In this document: positions 4,033-52,541 of the stretch, one piece after another | Position numbering within the stretch: position 1 is the stretch's first letter | How the letters are laid out: every line of letters begins with the position of its first letter | Origin: Flavobacteriaceae bacterium | Lineage (GTDB): Bacteria; Bacteroidota; Bacteroidia; Flavobacteriales; Flavobacteriaceae | Direction of reading: 5' to 3' | DNA: 64,000 nt | Assembly (NCBI GenBank): GCA_947461425.1 | Contig: CANHKZ010000001.1 | Location: 1,346-65,345, forward strand | Notes under the pieces: generated by a model | The model's input: only the letters and a program-made list of their open reading frames with translations | What the model was told of the DNA's origin: nothing | Databases searched by the model: none | Made by a program: the position numbers and the translations under genes

Positions 4033-4130
4033 GTTGTAGTTTATTAGTTGTCGTGCAAAAATAATGGCTTTTGAACGGAAATAATAATTAATTTTTAAAA
4101 AGTTGTTGGGAGAACTTATGCGTATCTGTT

Positions 4131-4967
4131 TTATTCTAAATTTTTCTTTTTCGAATTATCAGTAAGTGCTTTGAAATTTTCTTTGCTTACAATTTTTTTG
4201 CCCGATTTCTTTTCCAATTCTTTGCGGGCATTACCAGCAACACTTCCACCTGCTTTGGCGGCTTTTTGATTTTCCACAAAACCAATTGCATCTTTATTTT
4301 TTGCAATTTCAGTTGTCGAAGCTTCGCCTAGCATAGTGAATATCAACTCTAAATCGGTCATGTGGTCGCGGAGATTTTCGTTGACTTTAGTTAATCCTTT
4401 TAGTTTTTTGTAATCGCTTGGAACAATACCAAAAGTGGCTTTGCTTATTTCGGCGGTAAGTATCGCATATTCTTTTCCTTCTTTCACACCTCGTTCATTC
4501 CATTCTTTAGTTAATTCATCACGAACTACAATTCCTCTTATTCGTTTTTCTATCCACGCATCACTATAACCTTTAGCTTTGTAAGTGGCTCTAATTCGGG
4601 CTTGAGCCAATTCAGGATTTTCGATTTCGGCAATTCGTTCCGCACCCACTTGCGCTAACCATTGTTTGAAAGGCTCCGCTTTTGGGGATGGAACGGATTG
4701 GATGAGTCTTAAAAGTTGTTCTGTATCAGCAACATCTGTCATTCTCATTTTTCCGTCTGCAGCAAGCATTTTCAAACCGTGACAATTCGTCACGGTTTCA
4801 TTTCCGTCCGCTTTTAATCGTTGCTTTAATTTTCTCCAATAGGCTAAAGGGTCAACACTTTCGGTCAATATAAAAATGATATCCGTAATACTGAAATACC
4901 ATTTCTGCTCTTGCTCGTTCCAAATTGAACGTACATTTTTTTCTTCAAATAATTTAATGTTGCTCAT
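4131..4967 (-). CDS. BRO-N domain / phage antirepressor-like DNA-binding protein
   Basis: N-terminal VRSIWNEQEQKWYFSITD, YWRKLKQRL, LRLIQSVPSPKAEPFKQWLA typical of BRO-family proteins; TACATTTG element at 4997-5004. Confidence 0.8.
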   Translation of the reverse strand: MSNIKLFEEKNVRSIWNEQEQKWYFSITDIIFILTESVDPLAYWRKLKQRLKADGNETVTNCHGLKMLAADGKMRMTDVADTEQLLRLIQSVPSPKAEPFKQWLAQVGAERIAEIENPELAQARIRATYKAKGYSDAWIEKRIRGIVVRDELTKEWNERGVKEGKEYAILTAEISKATFGIVPSDYKKLKGLTKVNENLRDHMTDLELIFTMLGEASTTEIAKNKDAIGFVENQKAAKAGGSVAGNARKELEKKSGKKIVSKENFKALTDNSKKKNLE

Positions 4968-5073
4968 ACTAAATTTAAGTTTGGGGTTCTTAAATTCAAA
5001 TGTACGTTTTTATCCTAAAATGAATTGTTGACAAGTTGAAATAATTGATTTCAAAAGGGTGTTAAATAACTAA

Positions 5074-5104
5074 AACTTACAAGGTCAAAAAGACCTTGCA
5101 GGTT
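5074..5104. repeat. REP-like palindrome
   Basis: aacttacaaggtc-aaaaa-gaccttgcaggtt imperfect hairpin; related to 50981-51013 and 47288-47319. Confidence 0.55.
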
Positions 5105-5169
5105 AGATAATTCTGTAAACAAAAACCCCCTAAAATAGCGGGCTACGATTTGATTTTGTGTGTCAAATT

Positions 5170-5316
5170 TTACTTTTTTTCTAGTAATTCTTTAGTCAAT
5201 TCTAATTGTTGTTTTTGCAGACTTATAATCTCGTCTATTCGGAGCATCCATGCTCCAAGTAATCTAATTACTAAAACAATTACTACCAAAATTACGATTG
5301 CTACAATTGCTTCCAT
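5170..5316 (-). CDS. 48-aa single-TM protein with coiled-coil tail (not in ORF track)
   Basis: Manual translation MEAIVAIVILVVIVLVIRLLGAWMLRIDEIISLQKQQLELTKELLEKK*; A-rich 5' leader. Confidence 0.7.
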   Translation of the reverse strand: MEAIVAIVILVVIVLVIRLLGAWMLRIDEIISLQKQQLELTKELLEKK

Positions 5317-5350
5317 TTTTTTTGGGTTTTTAAAGATTCTTATTTAGTTG

Positions 5351-5398
5351 TTAAAATTTTCTTTGCTTACAATTTTTTGCCTGATTTCTTTTCTAATT
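5351..5398 (-). pseudogene. remnant copy of the BRO-N gene 3' end
   Basis: About 48 nt nearly identical to 4171-4219 (3 substitutions and 1 indel by eye). Confidence 0.65.
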
Positions 5399-5410
5399 GT
5401 CGATCGAGGG

Positions 5411-6343
5411 TTAATTTGATAAAGTTATTTTAATGGCTAATTCACCAAACTTATTATCATATTTATCCAGGTATTTACTAAATTCTGATTTTTTGTGAAT
5501 TCCTCTAGAAACCCATTTGCCTGCAAAGAAGTGCCAGGAAGTGCCTGAATCTGAGGGGATGGTGCCAATCGTTGGGCAGTAACTCAGTCCGTCTTTATAC
5601 ACTTTCTTCTTGGGGCCCGGAAGCCAGCCTTGTATTTTTGCATTATTTTCACCAAGAGTATATTTAAATGTGTATTTATTCTCTTCTATAATCATCCATT
5701 CAAAAGCAATAAACAAACCAGAATCTGGAATTACGATGTTTTTATCTTTCAAATCAACTGTGGTATCTCGCTTTCCTTTTTTAACCCTAACAATAATGAT
5801 GTCGTCTGAATAATCCAAGCCCGGACTTCCGTCTGGAGCCACTTCATAAAACCGAAGCTTTATTTTCGCATTGTTAATATTTGACCGAGTTAAAAAAGTA
5901 ATTGCATCGACAAAAGGATGTTTTTTTATGTCTTGGGTTGGCGTTATAAATTTGGCTATTATTGTAGGCTGGATACCTGCTCCATAATATAAATTAATGT
6001 TTTCCTTTTGATACTTTCCAATTTCGATTTGGTCTTTTCCAATTCGTTTTTGAATTACAACCTCGTTTAATTGATAAGCAATTGATTGTAAAACTACTTT
6101 TCTAGCTTCACTTAGTTTGGCTTTTACTGTTTGAAATCCAACGGCTGAAAAAACGAGGGTTTTGTTTACATCAACGGTGATCGAAAATTCGCCATTTTCC
6201 TCAGAAGTCGTTCCGATGTTTTCATTTTCGACCCAGATATTCACATACGGAATGGGCTTGCCCAATTCGTCAACCACAACGCCTTTGGTTTGCGCAAAAA
6301 AGGAAAAGGACAGCAATAAAAAAAAAGAAAACTTATTCATCAT
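5411..6343 (-). CDS. carboxypeptidase-regulatory-like (CarboxypepD_reg) domain secreted protein
   Basis: Signal peptide, then GVVVDELGKPIPYVNIWVENENIGTTSEENGEFS; paralog of 12332..13210; start placed at MMNKF (ORF track begins 6385). Confidence 0.8.
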   Translation of the reverse strand: MMNKFSFFLLLSFSFFAQTKGVVVDELGKPIPYVNIWVENENIGTTSEENGEFSITVDVNKTLVFSAVGFQTVKAKLSEARKVVLQSIAYQLNEVVIQKRIGKDQIEIGKYQKENINLYYGAGIQPTIIAKFITPTQDIKKHPFVDAITFLTRSNINNAKIKLRFYEVAPDGSPGLDYSDDIIIVRVKKGKRDTTVDLKDKNIVIPDSGLFIAFEWMIIEENKYTFKYTLGENNAKIQGWLPGPKKKVYKDGLSYCPTIGTIPSDSGTSWHFFAGKWVSRGIHKKSEFSKYLDKYDNKFGELAIKITLSN

Positions 6344-6431
6344 ACAAAATAGGATATTAAAATTGTCAAGCTTAATTTGGTTCACTCTGATTAAATTCTG
6401 AAATGGTATTTAAAAGCGCAAGGGGTTTAAA

Positions 6432-6535
6432 ATGGCTGTTAACGTTATGCAACGCGATGTGTTAGATTTAAAAGTACTTGCTTTCAATTTAGCACTAAAC
6501 CCGCCATATTGCCAAGGCTGCTGTTGGCTTTAGTT
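6432..6535 (-). repeat. attC-like cassette boundary element C
   Basis: Minus strand begins (TA)ACTAAAGCCAAC overlapping the TlpA stop and ends GTTAACAGCCAT; 6464-6535 is a near-copy of 7301-7370. Confidence 0.7.
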
Positions 6536-7247
6536 ATTTCAATTTTTCTAATTTTTTGATAAAATCTTTGCCGTCTCCTATTTTTAATTTTCCATTTTCA
6601 CCCCTTTCGTAAGGAATACCATACTCAGAGTATATTACAATTCCGTTTTTATCTAAAAATAGATTTACTGGATAAGATTTTAATTGCAATTTGTCTGTAA
6701 ATTCTCTTGCATCAACTATATGTAAGAATTTATATAAATGTTTTTTTAGAAACTTATCTACCTGTTTTTGAGATTCATAGGTTACAGCTATGAAATTATA
6801 TTTTTCTTTATACTCATCGTAAATTTTGTTAAGTATTGGCATTTCATCGATGCAAGGTGCGCAAGCAGTAAACCAAAAATTTATTAAGGTTGGTTTTCCA
6901 TTTAATTTATTTATTGGTATCTTTTTTCCATTTATATCTGTTAAAATCATTTCAGGAAGTTTTTTGCCTACATATTCTGATAAAGGACCTTTAAAAGCAT
7001 TAGTGTCCTTAATTTCAAATTTAACAAAATGGATAATTGAATCTGTTTTAGTTTCTGTATTATCAATATTGAACTTGACAAACGCTTCCTTATTAGATAT
7101 TTTTTTGTATTTTGTTTTTAATTCAGAAGTTTTTAAGTCAAGTTCTGCTTTAGTCAGCCTGTTTTTTCCATTTGTCGAATAATATTCTGTTTGAGAAAAA
7201 CAATTTAAAGCTGTAATCAAAAATGTTGTTAAAATTAGTTTTTTCAT
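6534..7247 (-). CDS. TlpA/ResA-family thiol-disulfide oxidoreductase (cassette 3)
   Basis: Signal peptide; INFWFTACAPCIDEMP (CxxC) and cis-Pro SYP motif. Confidence 0.88.
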   Translation of the reverse strand: MKKLILTTFLITALNCFSQTEYYSTNGKNRLTKAELDLKTSELKTKYKKISNKEAFVKFNIDNTETKTDSIIHFVKFEIKDTNAFKGPLSEYVGKKLPEMILTDINGKKIPINKLNGKPTLINFWFTACAPCIDEMPILNKIYDEYKEKYNFIAVTYESQKQVDKFLKKHLYKFLHIVDAREFTDKLQLKSYPVNLFLDKNGIVIYSEYGIPYERGENGKLKIGDGKDFIKKLEKLK

Positions 7248-7264
7248 GTTTTAGTTTTTTTATA

Positions 7265-7370
7265 ATTGTCTCCAAACAGTTTGCATATTTATGAAGTGGA
7301 AGATTTAAAAGCAATTGCTTTCAATTTAGCACTAAACCCCTATTTTGCCAGACTGCTGTTGGCTTTAGTT
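7265..7370 (-). repeat. attC-like cassette boundary element B
   Basis: Minus strand AACTAAAGCCAAC (contains the upstream gene's TAA) ... GTTTGGAGACAAT, 17 nt before the next ATG. Confidence 0.7.
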
Positions 7371-8051
7371 GTTTTTTATTCTGTAAATTATTCTGTCATT
7401 ATTACTATTAAAAAAATTCATTCCTAAATCATTTTTCAACTGTAATTTTAATTTATCAAATGATGTTTTTTTCCACTTGTAATTAATTCTTTCAGAATTA
7501 GTTTCGCAAGTGGTTTTTTCTAAAAATTCTGAATTCAATACTTCTGCTAGCTTATTTAAATCACAATTAGATAGTATAATTGAGTCTTTAAAAATGGTAA
7601 CTGAAGAAATTTTATTTTTTGAATTACTAATGAATTTCGAATATTTTAAACTGTCTTTAATTGTAATATTGAATGATTGATATTTCTCTTTAATTATTTT
7701 TAGTTTTAATTCGTGGATAATTTTATTTAAAACAACTTCATTAACAGAAATGTTTTCATCTTTTTGCTTGATAAGTAAAGCGTATTTTTTATTTTGTGAT
7801 TTTTCATTGTCAAATTTTATATTGCTTGTGTCGGTTTTAATTAGTATACCAAATATTTCTTTCAGCGTTATATTTTCTGCATTAATGTTTAATGGTGTTT
7901 TTTGAATATGATTGGTAAAATCATGATGGAAATATGCTGCTTTTTTAATCTCAATTTTATACGTTTCAGTATCTGCATTAAATGAATTGTTTTTACAAGA
8001 ATTCAAAGTAATAAATAACGCAAGAAAAAAGATTTTTTTTAGTAGATTCAT
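7365..8051 (-). CDS. lipoprotein, possibly DUF3738/TIGR03435-like (cassette 2)
   Basis: Start reassigned to ATG 8051 (MNLLKKIFFLALFITLNSC, lipobox); NITLKEIF, NCDLNKLAEVL and LKNDLGM patterns recall DUF3738 (weak). Confidence 0.6.
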   Translation of the reverse strand: MNLLKKIFFLALFITLNSCKNNSFNADTETYKIEIKKAAYFHHDFTNHIQKTPLNINAENITLKEIFGILIKTDTSNIKFDNEKSQNKKYALLIKQKDENISVNEVVLNKIIHELKLKIIKEKYQSFNITIKDSLKYSKFISNSKNKISSVTIFKDSIILSNCDLNKLAEVLNSEFLEKTTCETNSERINYKWKKTSFDKLKLQLKNDLGMNFFNSNNDRIIYRIKNN

Positions 8052-8067
8052 TTTTGTGTTTTTTATA

Positions 8068-8214
8068 ATTAAAGTTAACGTTTTCTGGGGCTTGTAGCAG
8101 TAGCAGATAAATATACCCAAACTTTTCTTTAAACACTAACCCTTGCAAGTACAAAAGCGACTTTCAGTTATGCCCGAAAGCCGCTATTGCTAAAAACTGC
8201 GTTTGTAAGAAGCT
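8068..8214 (-). repeat. attC-like cassette boundary element A
   Basis: Minus strand AGCTTCTTACAAAC 2 nt after a stop codon; internal inverted repeat TAGCAATAGCGG/CTGCTACTGCTA (10/12); ends GTTAACTTTAAT 16 nt before the next ATG. Confidence 0.7.
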
Positions 8215-8216
8215 AT

Positions 8217-8387
8217 TTATAAATTGGTAATCTTGTCATAAATAAAATAACCCATTAGTAATAATAGTAACGAAGTTCTAAGATATTCATATTTCTTTTT
8301 CTTTACTCTGTTATTAACTAATCTATATAAAACAAATAAAGAAATTAAAGAAAAAAAGCCTATATACATAAAATCTAATACTTTCAT
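8217..8387 (-). CDS. 56-aa two-TM protein, candidate immunity protein (not in ORF track)
   Basis: Manual translation MKVLDFMYIGFFSLISLFVLYRLVNNRVKKKKYEYLRTSLLLLLMGYFIYDKITNL*; starts 10 nt after the upstream stop. Confidence 0.7.
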   Translation of the reverse strand: MKVLDFMYIGFFSLISLFVLYRLVNNRVKKKKYEYLRTSLLLLLMGYFIYDKITNL

Positions 8388-8397
8388 ACTTTATAAT

Positions 8398-8982
8398 TTA
8401 AAACCAACCCATACAATCACCAAAATCGTAAACTATCAAAGTTGCGCCAACAACTCCCAAATATCTAGTTGCAACCTTACCAATAGCTCTTATTAATAAT
8501 CTACGATTAGAAAATTGGTTCCAAAAACCTTCGTGAAGTTCAAAACCAACAAAAGAACGAGCAACACAATCTAAAACAGAAGGATCGCCTTGAACTTGCA
8601 TTTGATAATTATCTTCTTCCATTTCGATAATTAAAATACCAACTAAAGCAATTTCAGGCGCATCTAAAGAACCAAATTCGTGAATTATTTCAGCTTGCGT
8701 AATGCCTTCTTGCAATAAAAGGTTTTTTGTTTCAATTACAAATGGTTCTAAAAATTCTTGAGCGTCTGCTTCTGTTAAGCCAGTACCACGCATCTGAAGC
8801 GAATTACTTAGTTTTTGGTTTTCTTTAACCTTATTAAATTGTAATTTTAAGGTTGATGCTAATTTTTTTGCATCAGCCTTTTTTTCAATTACATTTTCAT
8901 CATTTTCACTTGAACAAGAATAAAAAGAAAATGATACCAAAGTTATTAAAAGACTCGCGAAAATAAAAAATTTAGATTTCAT
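8398..8982 (-). CDS. lipoprotein with Cys-bracketed cationic amphipathic C-terminus (bacteriocin-like precursor?)
   Basis: Lipobox FYSC, acidic middle region, C-terminal DCVARS...RRLLIRAIGKVATRYLGVVGATLIVYDFGDCMGWF. Confidence 0.6.
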   Translation of the reverse strand: MKSKFFIFASLLITLVSFSFYSCSSENDENVIEKKADAKKLASTLKLQFNKVKENQKLSNSLQMRGTGLTEADAQEFLEPFVIETKNLLLQEGITQAEIIHEFGSLDAPEIALVGILIIEMEEDNYQMQVQGDPSVLDCVARSFVGFELHEGFWNQFSNRRLLIRAIGKVATRYLGVVGATLIVYDFGDCMGWF

Positions 8983-9064
8983 ATTGATATATTATTATTA
9001 AATTAAAATTGATAAATACTACATTTCCCATTTTATAAAGCAATTTTCAAGATTTTGTAGCAAA

Positions 9065-9072
9065 CAAATTTA
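9065..9072 (-). promoter_or_regulatory. candidate -7 promoter element inside cassette 1
   Basis: Minus strand TAAATTTG matches the Bacteroidota TAnnTTTG consensus, about 80 nt upstream of ATG 8982. Confidence 0.4.
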
Positions 9073-9172
9073 CTCACCGCTTTACTATTAAAAGACTTTT
9101 CTATTTTTAATATTTTTCATTATATATTATTTCTATCTAATTGGTTCAAATTTTGGCGTTTTTTCAGTTATA

Positions 9173-9309
9173 ATTTCTTACAACTCGTTTTTTGGCGCAA
9201 GTTGCCCATACAAGCGGTTACAAACGATTTAAGTCGTTTGCATTTTAAATAAAATCTGTAAAGGAAGTTGATTTGAGATCCAATGCAGTTTTAGGGCTTT
9301 TCAAATGTA
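9173..9309 (-). promoter_or_regulatory. array leader: Pc-like promoter and attI-like GTT box
   Basis: TACATTTG at 9309-9302 faces the array; the leader ends AAAAAACGAGTTGTAAGAAAT at 9173. Confidence 0.55.
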
Positions 9310-9381
9310 ATAAATTAATTGAACAATTTAAAAATTTAAAAATTTAAAATATTCGAAAGTTCGTGTTGTTTATATGCCAAT

Positions 9382-9407
9382 AAAAAACCCGCTTCGAGAA
9401 GCGGGTT
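9382..9407 (-). terminator. intrinsic terminator of the UDP-GlcA decarboxylase gene
   Basis: aacccgctt/aagcgggtt stem followed by a T-tract on the minus strand. Confidence 0.85.
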
Positions 9408-9412
9408 AGTTT

Positions 9413-10396
9413 TTATGTAATATAATTCGAGAAATCTTTGTGTTCCTCTTTCAATAATTCTTCTGGAGATAAGGATTTGAAATACTCATAGGTAATTTTC
9501 ATTCCTTCGGCACGGCCTACTTTGGCTTCCCAGCCCAATAGCTCTTTGGCTTTGGTGATGTCAGGTTGGCGCTGCAATGGGTCGTTTATGGGTAACGGAT
9601 GATAGACTACTTTTTGATTCGTACCCGTTAACTTGATGATTTCTTCGGCAAAGTCTTTAATCGTAATTTCGTCTGGATTCCCAATGTTAACCGGATACAC
9701 ATAATCCGAATGTAGCAACCTAAAAATTCCTTCCACTTGATCATCTACATAACAGAACGAACGTGTTTGCAATCCGTCGCCAAAAATGGTTAAATCCTCG
9801 CCACGAATCGCTTGCCCAATAAAGGCTGGAATGACGCGGCCGTCATTAAGGCGCATTCTTGGTCCGTAGGTATTGAAGATGCGAACAATTCGAGTTTCCA
9901 CGCCATGAAACGTATGGTACGCCATGGTAATCGATTCTTGGAAACGTTTGGCTTCGTCATATACGCCTCTTGGGCCAATGGTGTTTACGTTGCCATAGTA
10001 TTCTTCGGTTTGTGGATGCACTAATGGATCGCCATACACTTCTGAAGTCGAAGCAATTAAAATGCGTGCTTTTTTAACGCGTGCCAAGCCTAATAAGTTG
10101 TGTGTTCCTAACGAACCTACTTTTAGGGTTTGAATCGGAATTTTTAAATAATCGATTGGACTTGCTGGCGAAGCAAAATGTAAAATATAATCTACCTTTC
10201 CGGGAACGTGAACAAATTTGGTGATGTCATGGTGGTAAAATTCGAAGTTTTCCAACTTGAATAAATGTTCGATATTTTTCAGATCGCCCGTAATCAAATT
10301 GTCCATGCCTATAACAAAATAACCTTCTTTTATAAATCGGTCACAAAGATGCGATCCTAAAAATCCCGCCGCTCCTGTTATCAATATTCGTTTCAT
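9413..10396 (-). CDS. UDP-glucuronic acid decarboxylase family (extended SDR)
   Basis: [24 protein letters not shown] and YDEAKR motifs. Confidence 0.92.
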
Positions 10397-22176: not shown

Positions 22177-22343
22177 CTTACTAATTTTTTTCTAAAATGT
22201 TAAAAAAAGTTACATCACTGTATCTTTTCTAGAAGCATAGTCCGGATTCGAACCATACTTTACTAAATTTTTTCTAAAAAATTAAATAAAAAAAAGAGAC
22301 ACATTACTGTATCTCTTTTAGAGGCATCGTCCGGATTCGAACC
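22177..22343. repeat. two-unit tandem duplication containing the tRNA-Cys 3' end and downstream sequence
   Basis: 22177-22254 resembles 22258-22343; agaagcatagtccggattcgaacc vs agaggcatcgtccggattcgaacc (22/24). Confidence 0.8.
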
Positions 22344-22392
22344 GGAGTAGGAGCTTTTGCAGAGCCCAGCCTAGCCGCTCGGCCACGACGCC
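22322..22392 (-). tRNA. tRNA-Cys (GCA)
   Basis: GGCGTCG/CGATGCC acceptor stem, CTGCAAA anticodon loop, GGTTCGAATCC T-arm, U discriminator; CCA not encoded. Confidence 0.96.
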
Positions 22393-52367: not shown

Positions 52368-52443
52368 TTGGAGTGATTTGAAATTGATGCAATGTAAAAA
52401 AAAAACAGGAATTATTTTCAATAGAAAAACATTCGTCTATTTT

Positions 52444-52541
52444 AGCCCCGATGGGAGCGGCATCCTTTTAGGCTTTTAGCCAAAAAGATAGAGCGTACAG
52501 CGGGATTAAATGCTTGTGAAATACAAAATATGAGCTCCTAA
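52444..52541 (+). ncRNA. Flavo-1-like structured RNA/repeat
   Basis: agccccgatgggagcggcatcctttt...aaaagatagagcgtacagcggga...agctcctaa; nested stems; matches my recollection of the Flavo-1 motif, strand uncertain. Confidence 0.55.

Follow-up and report, generated by a model that had tools for sequence, protein, structure and literature searches.

The DNA analysed here, hereafter called the window, comprises 64,000 nucleotides of contig CANHKZ010000001.1 (positions 1,346 to 65,345 of the forward strand) in assembly GCA_947461425.1 of a Flavobacteriaceae bacterium. Between purD and uxs, its minus strand carries an array of three gene cassettes, each ending in an attC-like site (A, B and C), behind a leader module with a promoter-like box and an attI-like landing site, Z (Table 1). 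No integrase is encoded near the array, as a first-pass annotation made from the letters alone had stated. We consider that this is an integrase-less platform whose three cassettes vary at a fixed G|TT position, and that they were likely moved by an integron-like tyrosine recombinase of Bacteroidota that is not an IntI, a reading drawn from sequence comparison.

Table 1. Features of the cassette array and its surroundings (window coordinates), with the two tet(X) loci discussed in the text
Feature	Position	Strand	Description
Cassette 1	8079..9183	-	1105 bp; first position; start GTTGTAAGAA; absent as a unit in three metagenome runs
Open reading frame (ORF) 1a	8398..8982	-	194 aa; lipoprotein-like N-terminus; no family over cut-off
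ORF 1b	8217..8387	-	56 aa; hydrophobic; no family
Site A	8068..8214	-	147 bp; attC-like; standard length class; eroded; crossover G at 8079
Cassette 2	7277..8078	-	802 bp; ORF 7365-8051, 228 aa, no family over cut-off
Site B	7265..7370	-	106 bp; shortened (83 bp from AAC to G); eroded; crossover G at 7277
Cassette 3	6443..7276	-	834 bp; ORF 6534-7247, 237 aa, TlpA/ResA-like redoxin (Redoxin/AhpC-TSA)
Site C	6432..6535	-	104 bp; shortened (82 bp); eroded; left 84 nt B-like; crossover G at 6443
Site Z	9172..9203	-	attI-like landing site; crossover G|TT, G at 9184
Leader module	9204..9345	-	copies at other chromosomal places in the lineage; holds the promoter-like box
TAnnTTTG box (TACATTTG)	9302..9309	-	candidate cassette promoter Pc, 125 nt upstream of the crossover G
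Rest of island	4102..6442	-	CarboxypepD_reg-domain gene 5411-6385; 48-aa ORF 5170-5316; Bro-N gene 4131-4967; no sites detected
tpnF/xerD-tet(X) locus, Acinetobacter plasmid p29FS20-1	L224:4052-6073		
tpnF/xerD-tet(X) locus, plasmid pHH1107	L225:4052-6150		

Much of the first-pass description of the array was borne out by the sequence. All six boxes were recovered at their minus-strand positions, together with both near-identical spacers, which separate the ATG from the GTT box by 16 nt in cassette 2 and by 17 nt in cassette 3. The modules are AT-rich as described, with 23–28% G+C in the three cassettes versus 34% in the genome. The proposed overlap between stop codon and left box holds for ORFs 2 and 3, whose stops lie inside the box or overlap it, but in module 1 the last stop ends 2 nt before it. 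This module contains two ORFs and begins at a fourth right-hand box that had not been listed, with its G at 9184. The boxes also lack the full RYYYAAC/GTTRRRY consensus, as had been remarked, since none of the three left ends fits RYYYAAC and none of the four right ends fits GTTRRRY. What is not borne out is the description of the window elements as imperfect palindromes, their folding z values ranging from -0.2 to +1.0 on both strands.

The start of cassette 1, GTTGTAAGAA, is complemented by the cassette's own left box in site A, save for one extra base. Close relatives of the site A element occur in other genomes of the genus, and eight relatives of ORF 1a were found, at 46–94% identity. A left-end position matrix trained on the congener G010 (see below) assigns 21 bits to B, 9.3 to A and -8.3 to C, which carries a one-base insertion; on the right-end matrix, none of sites A, B and C exceeds 4 bits. 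Sites B and C have 84 nt in common at 87% identity (BLAST E 5e-21 within their own genome), the left part of C (6452-6535) being like 7287-7370 of B. The sites that terminate other cassette 3 copies are of different types, and the left part of C resembles B and not the sites found with two of these copies (L222 and L223). The likeness between B and C possibly comes from gene conversion between neighbouring sites.

Upstream of the cassettes, the leader holds a TAnnTTTG box, which is the -7 promoter consensus of Bacteroidota. With a leader and an attI-like site belonging to it, the array is a platform and more than a cluster of attC-like sites. Copies of the leader at 79–85% identity lie on another contig of the same genome (C44), in G119 (one, with a second at 72%) and in G209 (two). 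In the six full copies, similarity stops at G|TT and different DNA follows each. Three weaker partial copies, without a matching attI-like end, occur in G148. The 10–11 bases before the crossover G (window 9185-9195) vary strongly between strains and between leader copies, and the rest of the leader is ~90% alike between strains. The leader module often adjoins small gene pairs of toxin–antitoxin type, as judged by eye from ORFs (L189-L191 in G148, L149/L150 in G119, L187 in G209). Cassette entry at G|TT, the defining property of an attI site, is supported by breakpoints at 9184 in three metagenome runs and in the six leader copies, and the role of Z rests on these breakpoints and not on its motif, because its match to the attI matrix is poor.

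Evidence for mobility comes from strain comparison, for which seven of 20 matching metagenome runs were examined; the eight runs containing half or more of the sampled words are freshwater or lake metagenomes from two studies. Contigs from X9 and X10 (study P3) and from X14 (study P5) join the leader directly to cassette 2 at 8079, so that the 1105 bp of cassette 1 are missing exactly at G|TT; 10–11 diverged letters stand where the window has the bases preceding the G. One X10 contig (1627 bp) carries the leader, cassette 2 and 514 other letters before rejoining the window at 6450, seven bases before the crossover of C; cassette 3 has therefore been replaced there. Cassettes 2 and 3 are kept together in X14, near-identical pieces of the window arrangement are present in X3, X6 and X8, and the coverage of X13 is too thin for comparing the array. 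An intact-looking right arm appears in X9 as a loose end at 7301, within site B. The first-pass prediction that gains and losses would break at the GTT boxes thus agrees with the strain differences.

The cassettes also occur at other places, and in three of four other loci (L221, L222 and L223) they start at the same G|TT, the fourth (L220) being eroded at the junction. Cassette 2 is 91% identical from G|TT onward in L221, where it follows a different cassette and site. Cassette 3 is found beside dnaK in L222 (94% identical) and behind another site in L223 (75%). Its own ends are fully complementary in L223 and at five of six bases in L222; the window copies have drifted. Further site copies were expected in the same genome and are present on contigs C33, C44 and C54, as well as in relatives. 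These further arrays or sites (C44:765-4200, C33:20276-20410 and C54:1505-2350) are better preserved than those of the window; on C44, the leader is the same one, the first cassette apparently contains no gene, and a short repeat of the 3' end of the upstream gene follows the array.

At a larger scale, the array belongs to a 5.3-kb island. In G119, the closest relative by uxs DNA (91%) among 150 genomes searched, purD and uxs are adjacent and window positions 4102-9412 are missing, including the Bro-N domain gene at 4131-4967. One X3 contig joins 4101 to 9414, an empty locus from which the array and the rest of the island are gone. In 11 other genomes, the uxs-purD interval is filled by 2.8–7 kb of other genes (glycosyl-, toxin–antitoxin and other) without sites. 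That a recombinase formerly resided at this interval was considered and set aside, as none of these 11 was seen with an integrase, which is not decisive.

The properties of intact sites are best seen in G010. A search with site C gave matches in 10 of 41 genomes, with a cluster in this congener, where all 58 left and all 61 right ends, spread over ~220 kb downstream of a divergent gene for a 361-aa tyrosine recombinase, share a single strand. The left box of a site is complementary, at 4.87 of six positions, to the right box in front of its own gene; the value is 2.02 for the right box of the same site and 2.40 ± 0.16 after shuffling (maximum 3.02 in 10,000; n=54). Once 13 junctions split by an insertion sequence (IS) and two spans longer than 7 kb are left out, the ends are perfectly self-complementary in 41 of 43 cassettes. 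Ends of this kind would be expected if circular cassettes had been opened at G|TT. RYYYAAC is fitted by only 3/58 left ends, and GTTRRRY by only 3/46 right ends. Site lengths are mostly 119–124 or 181–186 bp. In 42 of 44 intact sites, the arms pair in a register that leaves four additional bases between the R and L boxes of the right arm; the median bottom-strand folding z of the 44 sites is -3.9. The bottom strand folds lower in 33 of them, 66 A-C mismatches of the top strand becoming G-T pairs on the bottom strand. In the same region (G010:C1 896,000-1,140,000; L068, L024-L035), an IS1182-family element sits at the crossover of 15 of the 61 right ends, always at GT; the displaced GTT box reappears after the element in the four copies examined, and by its insertion pattern the element looks like a site-targeting IS.

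The G010 recombinase contains Phage_int_SAM_4 and Phage_integrase domains and scores 192 bits on TIGR02249 against a cut-off of 265; a scan of 151 genomes with this model was silent everywhere, controls included, and is hence uninformative. Its alignment leaves residues 210-246 of 2A3V unmatched. Across the family, the region of the IntI insertion measures 54–59 aa in 46 site-linked recombinases, versus 95–96 aa in IntI1 and 17 insertion-bearing viral rows. In a tree of 110 rows (two partial Xer rows omitted), an IntI branch excludes all 46 linked enzymes with a Shimodaira–Hasegawa-like approximate likelihood ratio test (SH-aLRT) value of 99, and the family also lies outside the host XerC/D branch; this was a quick tree without bootstrap, rooted at the midpoint, subject to a long-branch warning and with the IntI group chosen by its insertion. 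Most members have an extra N-terminal region of 70–110 aa, modelled with a predicted local distance difference test (pLDDT) score of 93 as a small beta-beta-alpha-beta-beta-alpha fold. DUF5710 is matched in 10 of 21 members at E<=10, with 1.4e-5 as the best value.

Recombinases of this family are widespread and often stand beside sites. Close relatives occur in 17 of 151 genomes of the genus, and 80 of 251 genomes of a phylum sample have a profile match at E<=1e-90, not all of which need head arrays. Sites lie within 1.5 kb of 9/17 genus loci and of 14/30 best phylum loci (kin among them are not independent), compared with 1/28 loci of other tyrosine recombinases and 0/29 uxs loci. Arrays abutting a tyrosine recombinase, another of the early expectations, are thus seen in other genomes. 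Many recombinases are co-oriented with their cassettes, those of G010 and G056 being divergent; in co-oriented integrase-linked arrays, a similar promoter-like box follows the recombinase stop and the attI-like site lies mostly 100–200 nt beyond. A phage donor of the recombinase was rejected, as the best 80 viral loci match its core only, mostly at 26–48% identity, with no close full-length copy. Sites are nearby in 16 of these 80 loci, and viral contigs L261, L277, L258, L297 and L335 have shorter or partial insertion-less recombinases near sites of the family.

Taken together, further copies, breakpoints at G|TT and arrays beside recombinases support the cassette-capture system of Bacteroidota type that the first-pass annotation had proposed. 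What stands at the locus is an integrase-less platform, by now eroded, that belongs to a non-canonical integron-like system. There is little doubt that the modules are site-specific cassettes, and they were likely moved by the insertion-less recombinase family. Each cassette would leave as a circle, closed where its own boxes (GTT and six variable complementary bases) meet. The bottom strand is probably the substrate in folded form, the state in which canonical attC sites recombine before resolution by replication, and would form a hairpin with an asymmetric loop of two versus six bases and G-T pairs. The recombinase would then join the hairpin site to the attI-like site, which would place incoming cassettes beside the candidate promoter. 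Cassette 1 would then be the latest arrival or have been lost from other strains. Less firmly, the enzyme may have acted in trans at the window locus, which on balance we favour, or may have been lost from the lineage later. More tentatively still, and with some doubt on our part, a HARP-like N-terminal domain could take over the part of the IntI insertion and read the folded site. The erosion of sites A, B and C has probably fixed the three cassettes in this strain, while site Z may still be open to new arrivals.

Several points weigh against this interpretation. All evidence for recombination is comparative, and the site matrices are position matrices trained on G010 alone. Sites A, B and C fold no better than shuffled sequences, and the cassettes of the window pair imperfectly at their own ends, with an extra base in cassette 1, 4/6 in cassette 2 and no clean match in cassette 3. 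A matrix made from 10 integrase-linked attI-like sites of co-oriented arrays gives Z only 0.9 bits, a score reached at 8472 of 3.8 million positions, and was rejected as an identifier since it does not single Z out; homologues of Z score 16.8, 10.9, 7.8, 4.3 and -7.2 bits. No site lies within 1.5 kb of 8/17 genus and 16/30 phylum recombinase loci, in addition to the kinship among loci mentioned above. The resemblance to HARP, the domain of SMARCAL1 and of the T4 UvsW N-terminus, is weak: 4O66 is the best sequence match in PDB at a profile E of 0.2, a Foldseek search ranks HARP second at E 0.81 with nothing at E<=0.001, and T4 UvsW, at the top of a structure comparison (Z 4.0, root-mean-square deviation 2.4, 51 aligned), is tied with unrelated rows. 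No circular cassette joint was found among the contigs examined, which cannot show rare circles; joints in which 7335 goes back to 6483 were discarded as cassette circles, as they derive from other B/C-like sites. Finally, a cognate recombinase was not found in the window's own genome (89.6% complete), in G119 (one contig, 99%), in G209 (68%) or in G148 (95%), the single PF00589 match of the first lying on another contig with Xer-level similarity. As the recombinase itself was found neither in this genome nor in the complete relative G119, service in trans, as suggested early on, is something that we infer.

The last point gives some weight to a frozen relic, which we rate as the less probable account yet a serious one. 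A complete element with its recombinase would once have stood between uxs and the leader, the gene having since been lost, with no action in trans today and with strain differences dating from that time or from homologous recombination. The cassette mechanism is the same in this account and only the timing is different, hence its overlap with our preferred explanation. Besides the missing recombinase in four leader-bearing genomes, it would explain the erosion of the window sites, and deletion of a co-oriented recombinase gene, with its promoter-like box right after the stop, would leave exactly such a leader. It accords less well with the X9 contig that links the leader to uxs (9265-9637), leaving no room for an integrase, and yet displays whole-cassette differences and intact-looking right arms. 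Nor do the 11 other uxs-purD intervals, devoid of sites and of any integrase seen, speak for it, and in G233 cassette 3 and a full recombinase are carried on separate contigs.

It is improbable that the modules were recombined as double strands, whether by host XerC/D, as for pdif modules with their 28-bp dif-like sites, or, with no folding involved, by the linked enzyme. The best solved relatives of this enzyme by sequence are archaeal XerA, and it is devoid of the insertion that passages of PMC8138268 describe as essential for integron function. However, intact sites retain long arms that are complementary at a constant 4-nt offset (42/44 sites), which, with the bottom-strand bias toward G-T pairs, argues for a folded substrate. 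The linked enzymes also stand apart from host XerC/XerD in the tree, and loci of XerC/D and other recombinases come without sites, with the one exception in 28.

We see very little chance that the array is an ordinary CALIN, the term for attC site clusters without integrase (10.1101/030866; PMC9024848, as excerpted), left by a classical IntI integron whose attC sites have drifted. Known integrons, such as those of class 1 IntI1 and Vibrio cholerae IntI4 (PDB 2A3V), do share the layout, with one-strand arrays, start codons close behind the site, AAC/GTT triplets, a G|TT crossover, a variable cassette beside the attI-like site and a recombinase at the array head, and the family recombinase has an IntI-like C-terminal SPLD motif. 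As in a CALIN, several sites and cassettes are present with no integrase nearby. Against this, the enzymes lack ~40 aa of the IntI insertion, fall outside the IntI clade and mostly bear 70–110 aa of additional N-terminal sequence, and the R boxes consist of GTT and six free complementary bases. The canonical attC core is RYYYAAC / GTTRRRY, and its fold has 2–3 extrahelical bases near L'' (PMC5027507, in the passages concerned); heptamer fits are rare in G010 and nil in the window, and the intact G010 sites, which do fold, put four extra bases on the right arm instead. Moreover, the window differs from a CALIN in keeping a leader with promoter-like box and attI-like site, a unit that recurs at several loci with turnover, and in its non-canonical sites. 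Chance boxes, terminators or repeats of the repetitive extragenic palindromic or miniature inverted-repeat transposable element (REP/MITE) type between horizontally acquired genes might suit the degenerate, unfolded window copies, but they are hardly credible in view of single-base breakpoints across strains, strict strand polarity, pairing between a cassette's own ends and the lack of any Rfam family at gathering score in the region. Away from the array, the window holds a Flavo-1 RNA (RF01705, 66.8 bits) at 52440-52511 and a tRNA at 22322-22392. Judging by this RNA and by the names of close matches, the host is probably a Flavobacterium.

The locus works like an integron platform, while the linked enzymes of the family and the sites belong neither with IntI nor with canonical attC. 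Bacteroidota are named among the phyla with integrons in an excerpt of PMC8618304. According to the parts of PMC9024848 available, IntegronFinder 2 detected one complete integron in Bacteroidetes proper and, in 30 of the 76 Flavobacterium rows of the supplement, 0 complete integrons, 0 CALIN and 0 In0. Co-oriented recombinase and cassettes, as in many family arrays, are also known from the inverted-integrase integrons of Treponema (10.1101/030866, in part), which differ in using IntI proper; the insertion-less family also has divergent layouts. The 'integron-like' subgroup of Smyshlyaev et al. 2021 counts many Bacteroidota proteins and may already include the insertion-less recombinases, although the available passages describe no cassette arrays or sites for its members (PMC8138268). 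Secondary attG insertion sites (10.1101/2022.09.11.507474) likewise place cassettes in chromosomes away from the integrase gene; the landing site of the window differs by belonging to a conserved leader family and by taking several cassettes in turn. Our literature search, which reached few subscription journals and few bioRxiv supplements, found no description of the system.

A possible link to antibiotic resistance emerged from the recombinase comparison. The truncated tpnF/xerD that precedes tet(X5)/tet(X3) shares 48.7% identity with the G010 recombinase, is without the IntI insertion and, with an SH-aLRT of 100, falls together with two Bacteroidota members. In these loci, the truncated gene is followed by a promoter-like box and by a right-type GTT box 18 nt before the tet(X) start; on pHH1107, a candidate left arm identified by eye comes after the tet(X3) stop and breaks off. 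None of the tet(X) boxes rises above 5 bits on the matrices, and the two ends match only partly. In the portions of PMC7722449 that deal with it, tpnF is treated only as part of the ISCR2 unit. As a broader proposal, which we put forward with reserve and hold to be somewhat doubtful as a whole, Bacteroidota could possess a second class of integrons that escapes standard tools; in its recombinase, a HARP-type domain that binds branched DNA would replace the IntI insertion and read an asymmetric hairpin, and this recombinase would serve, in trans, satellite promoter-plus-attI platforms dispersed over the chromosome. The same class would have supplied the truncated recombinase and the cassette for tet(X3)/tet(X5) on Acinetobacter plasmids.

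To conclude, our results point, if confirmed, to an overlooked gene-capture system in a major phylum, for which the locus provides direct evidence of whole-cassette differences between wild strains at a platform lacking an integrase. Such a system would test the need for the IntI insertion in recombining folded DNA. Besides, the link between tpnF/xerD and tet(X3)/(X5), if true, would offer an explanation for the first mobility of a gene conferring resistance to a last-resort antibiotic, tigecycline.

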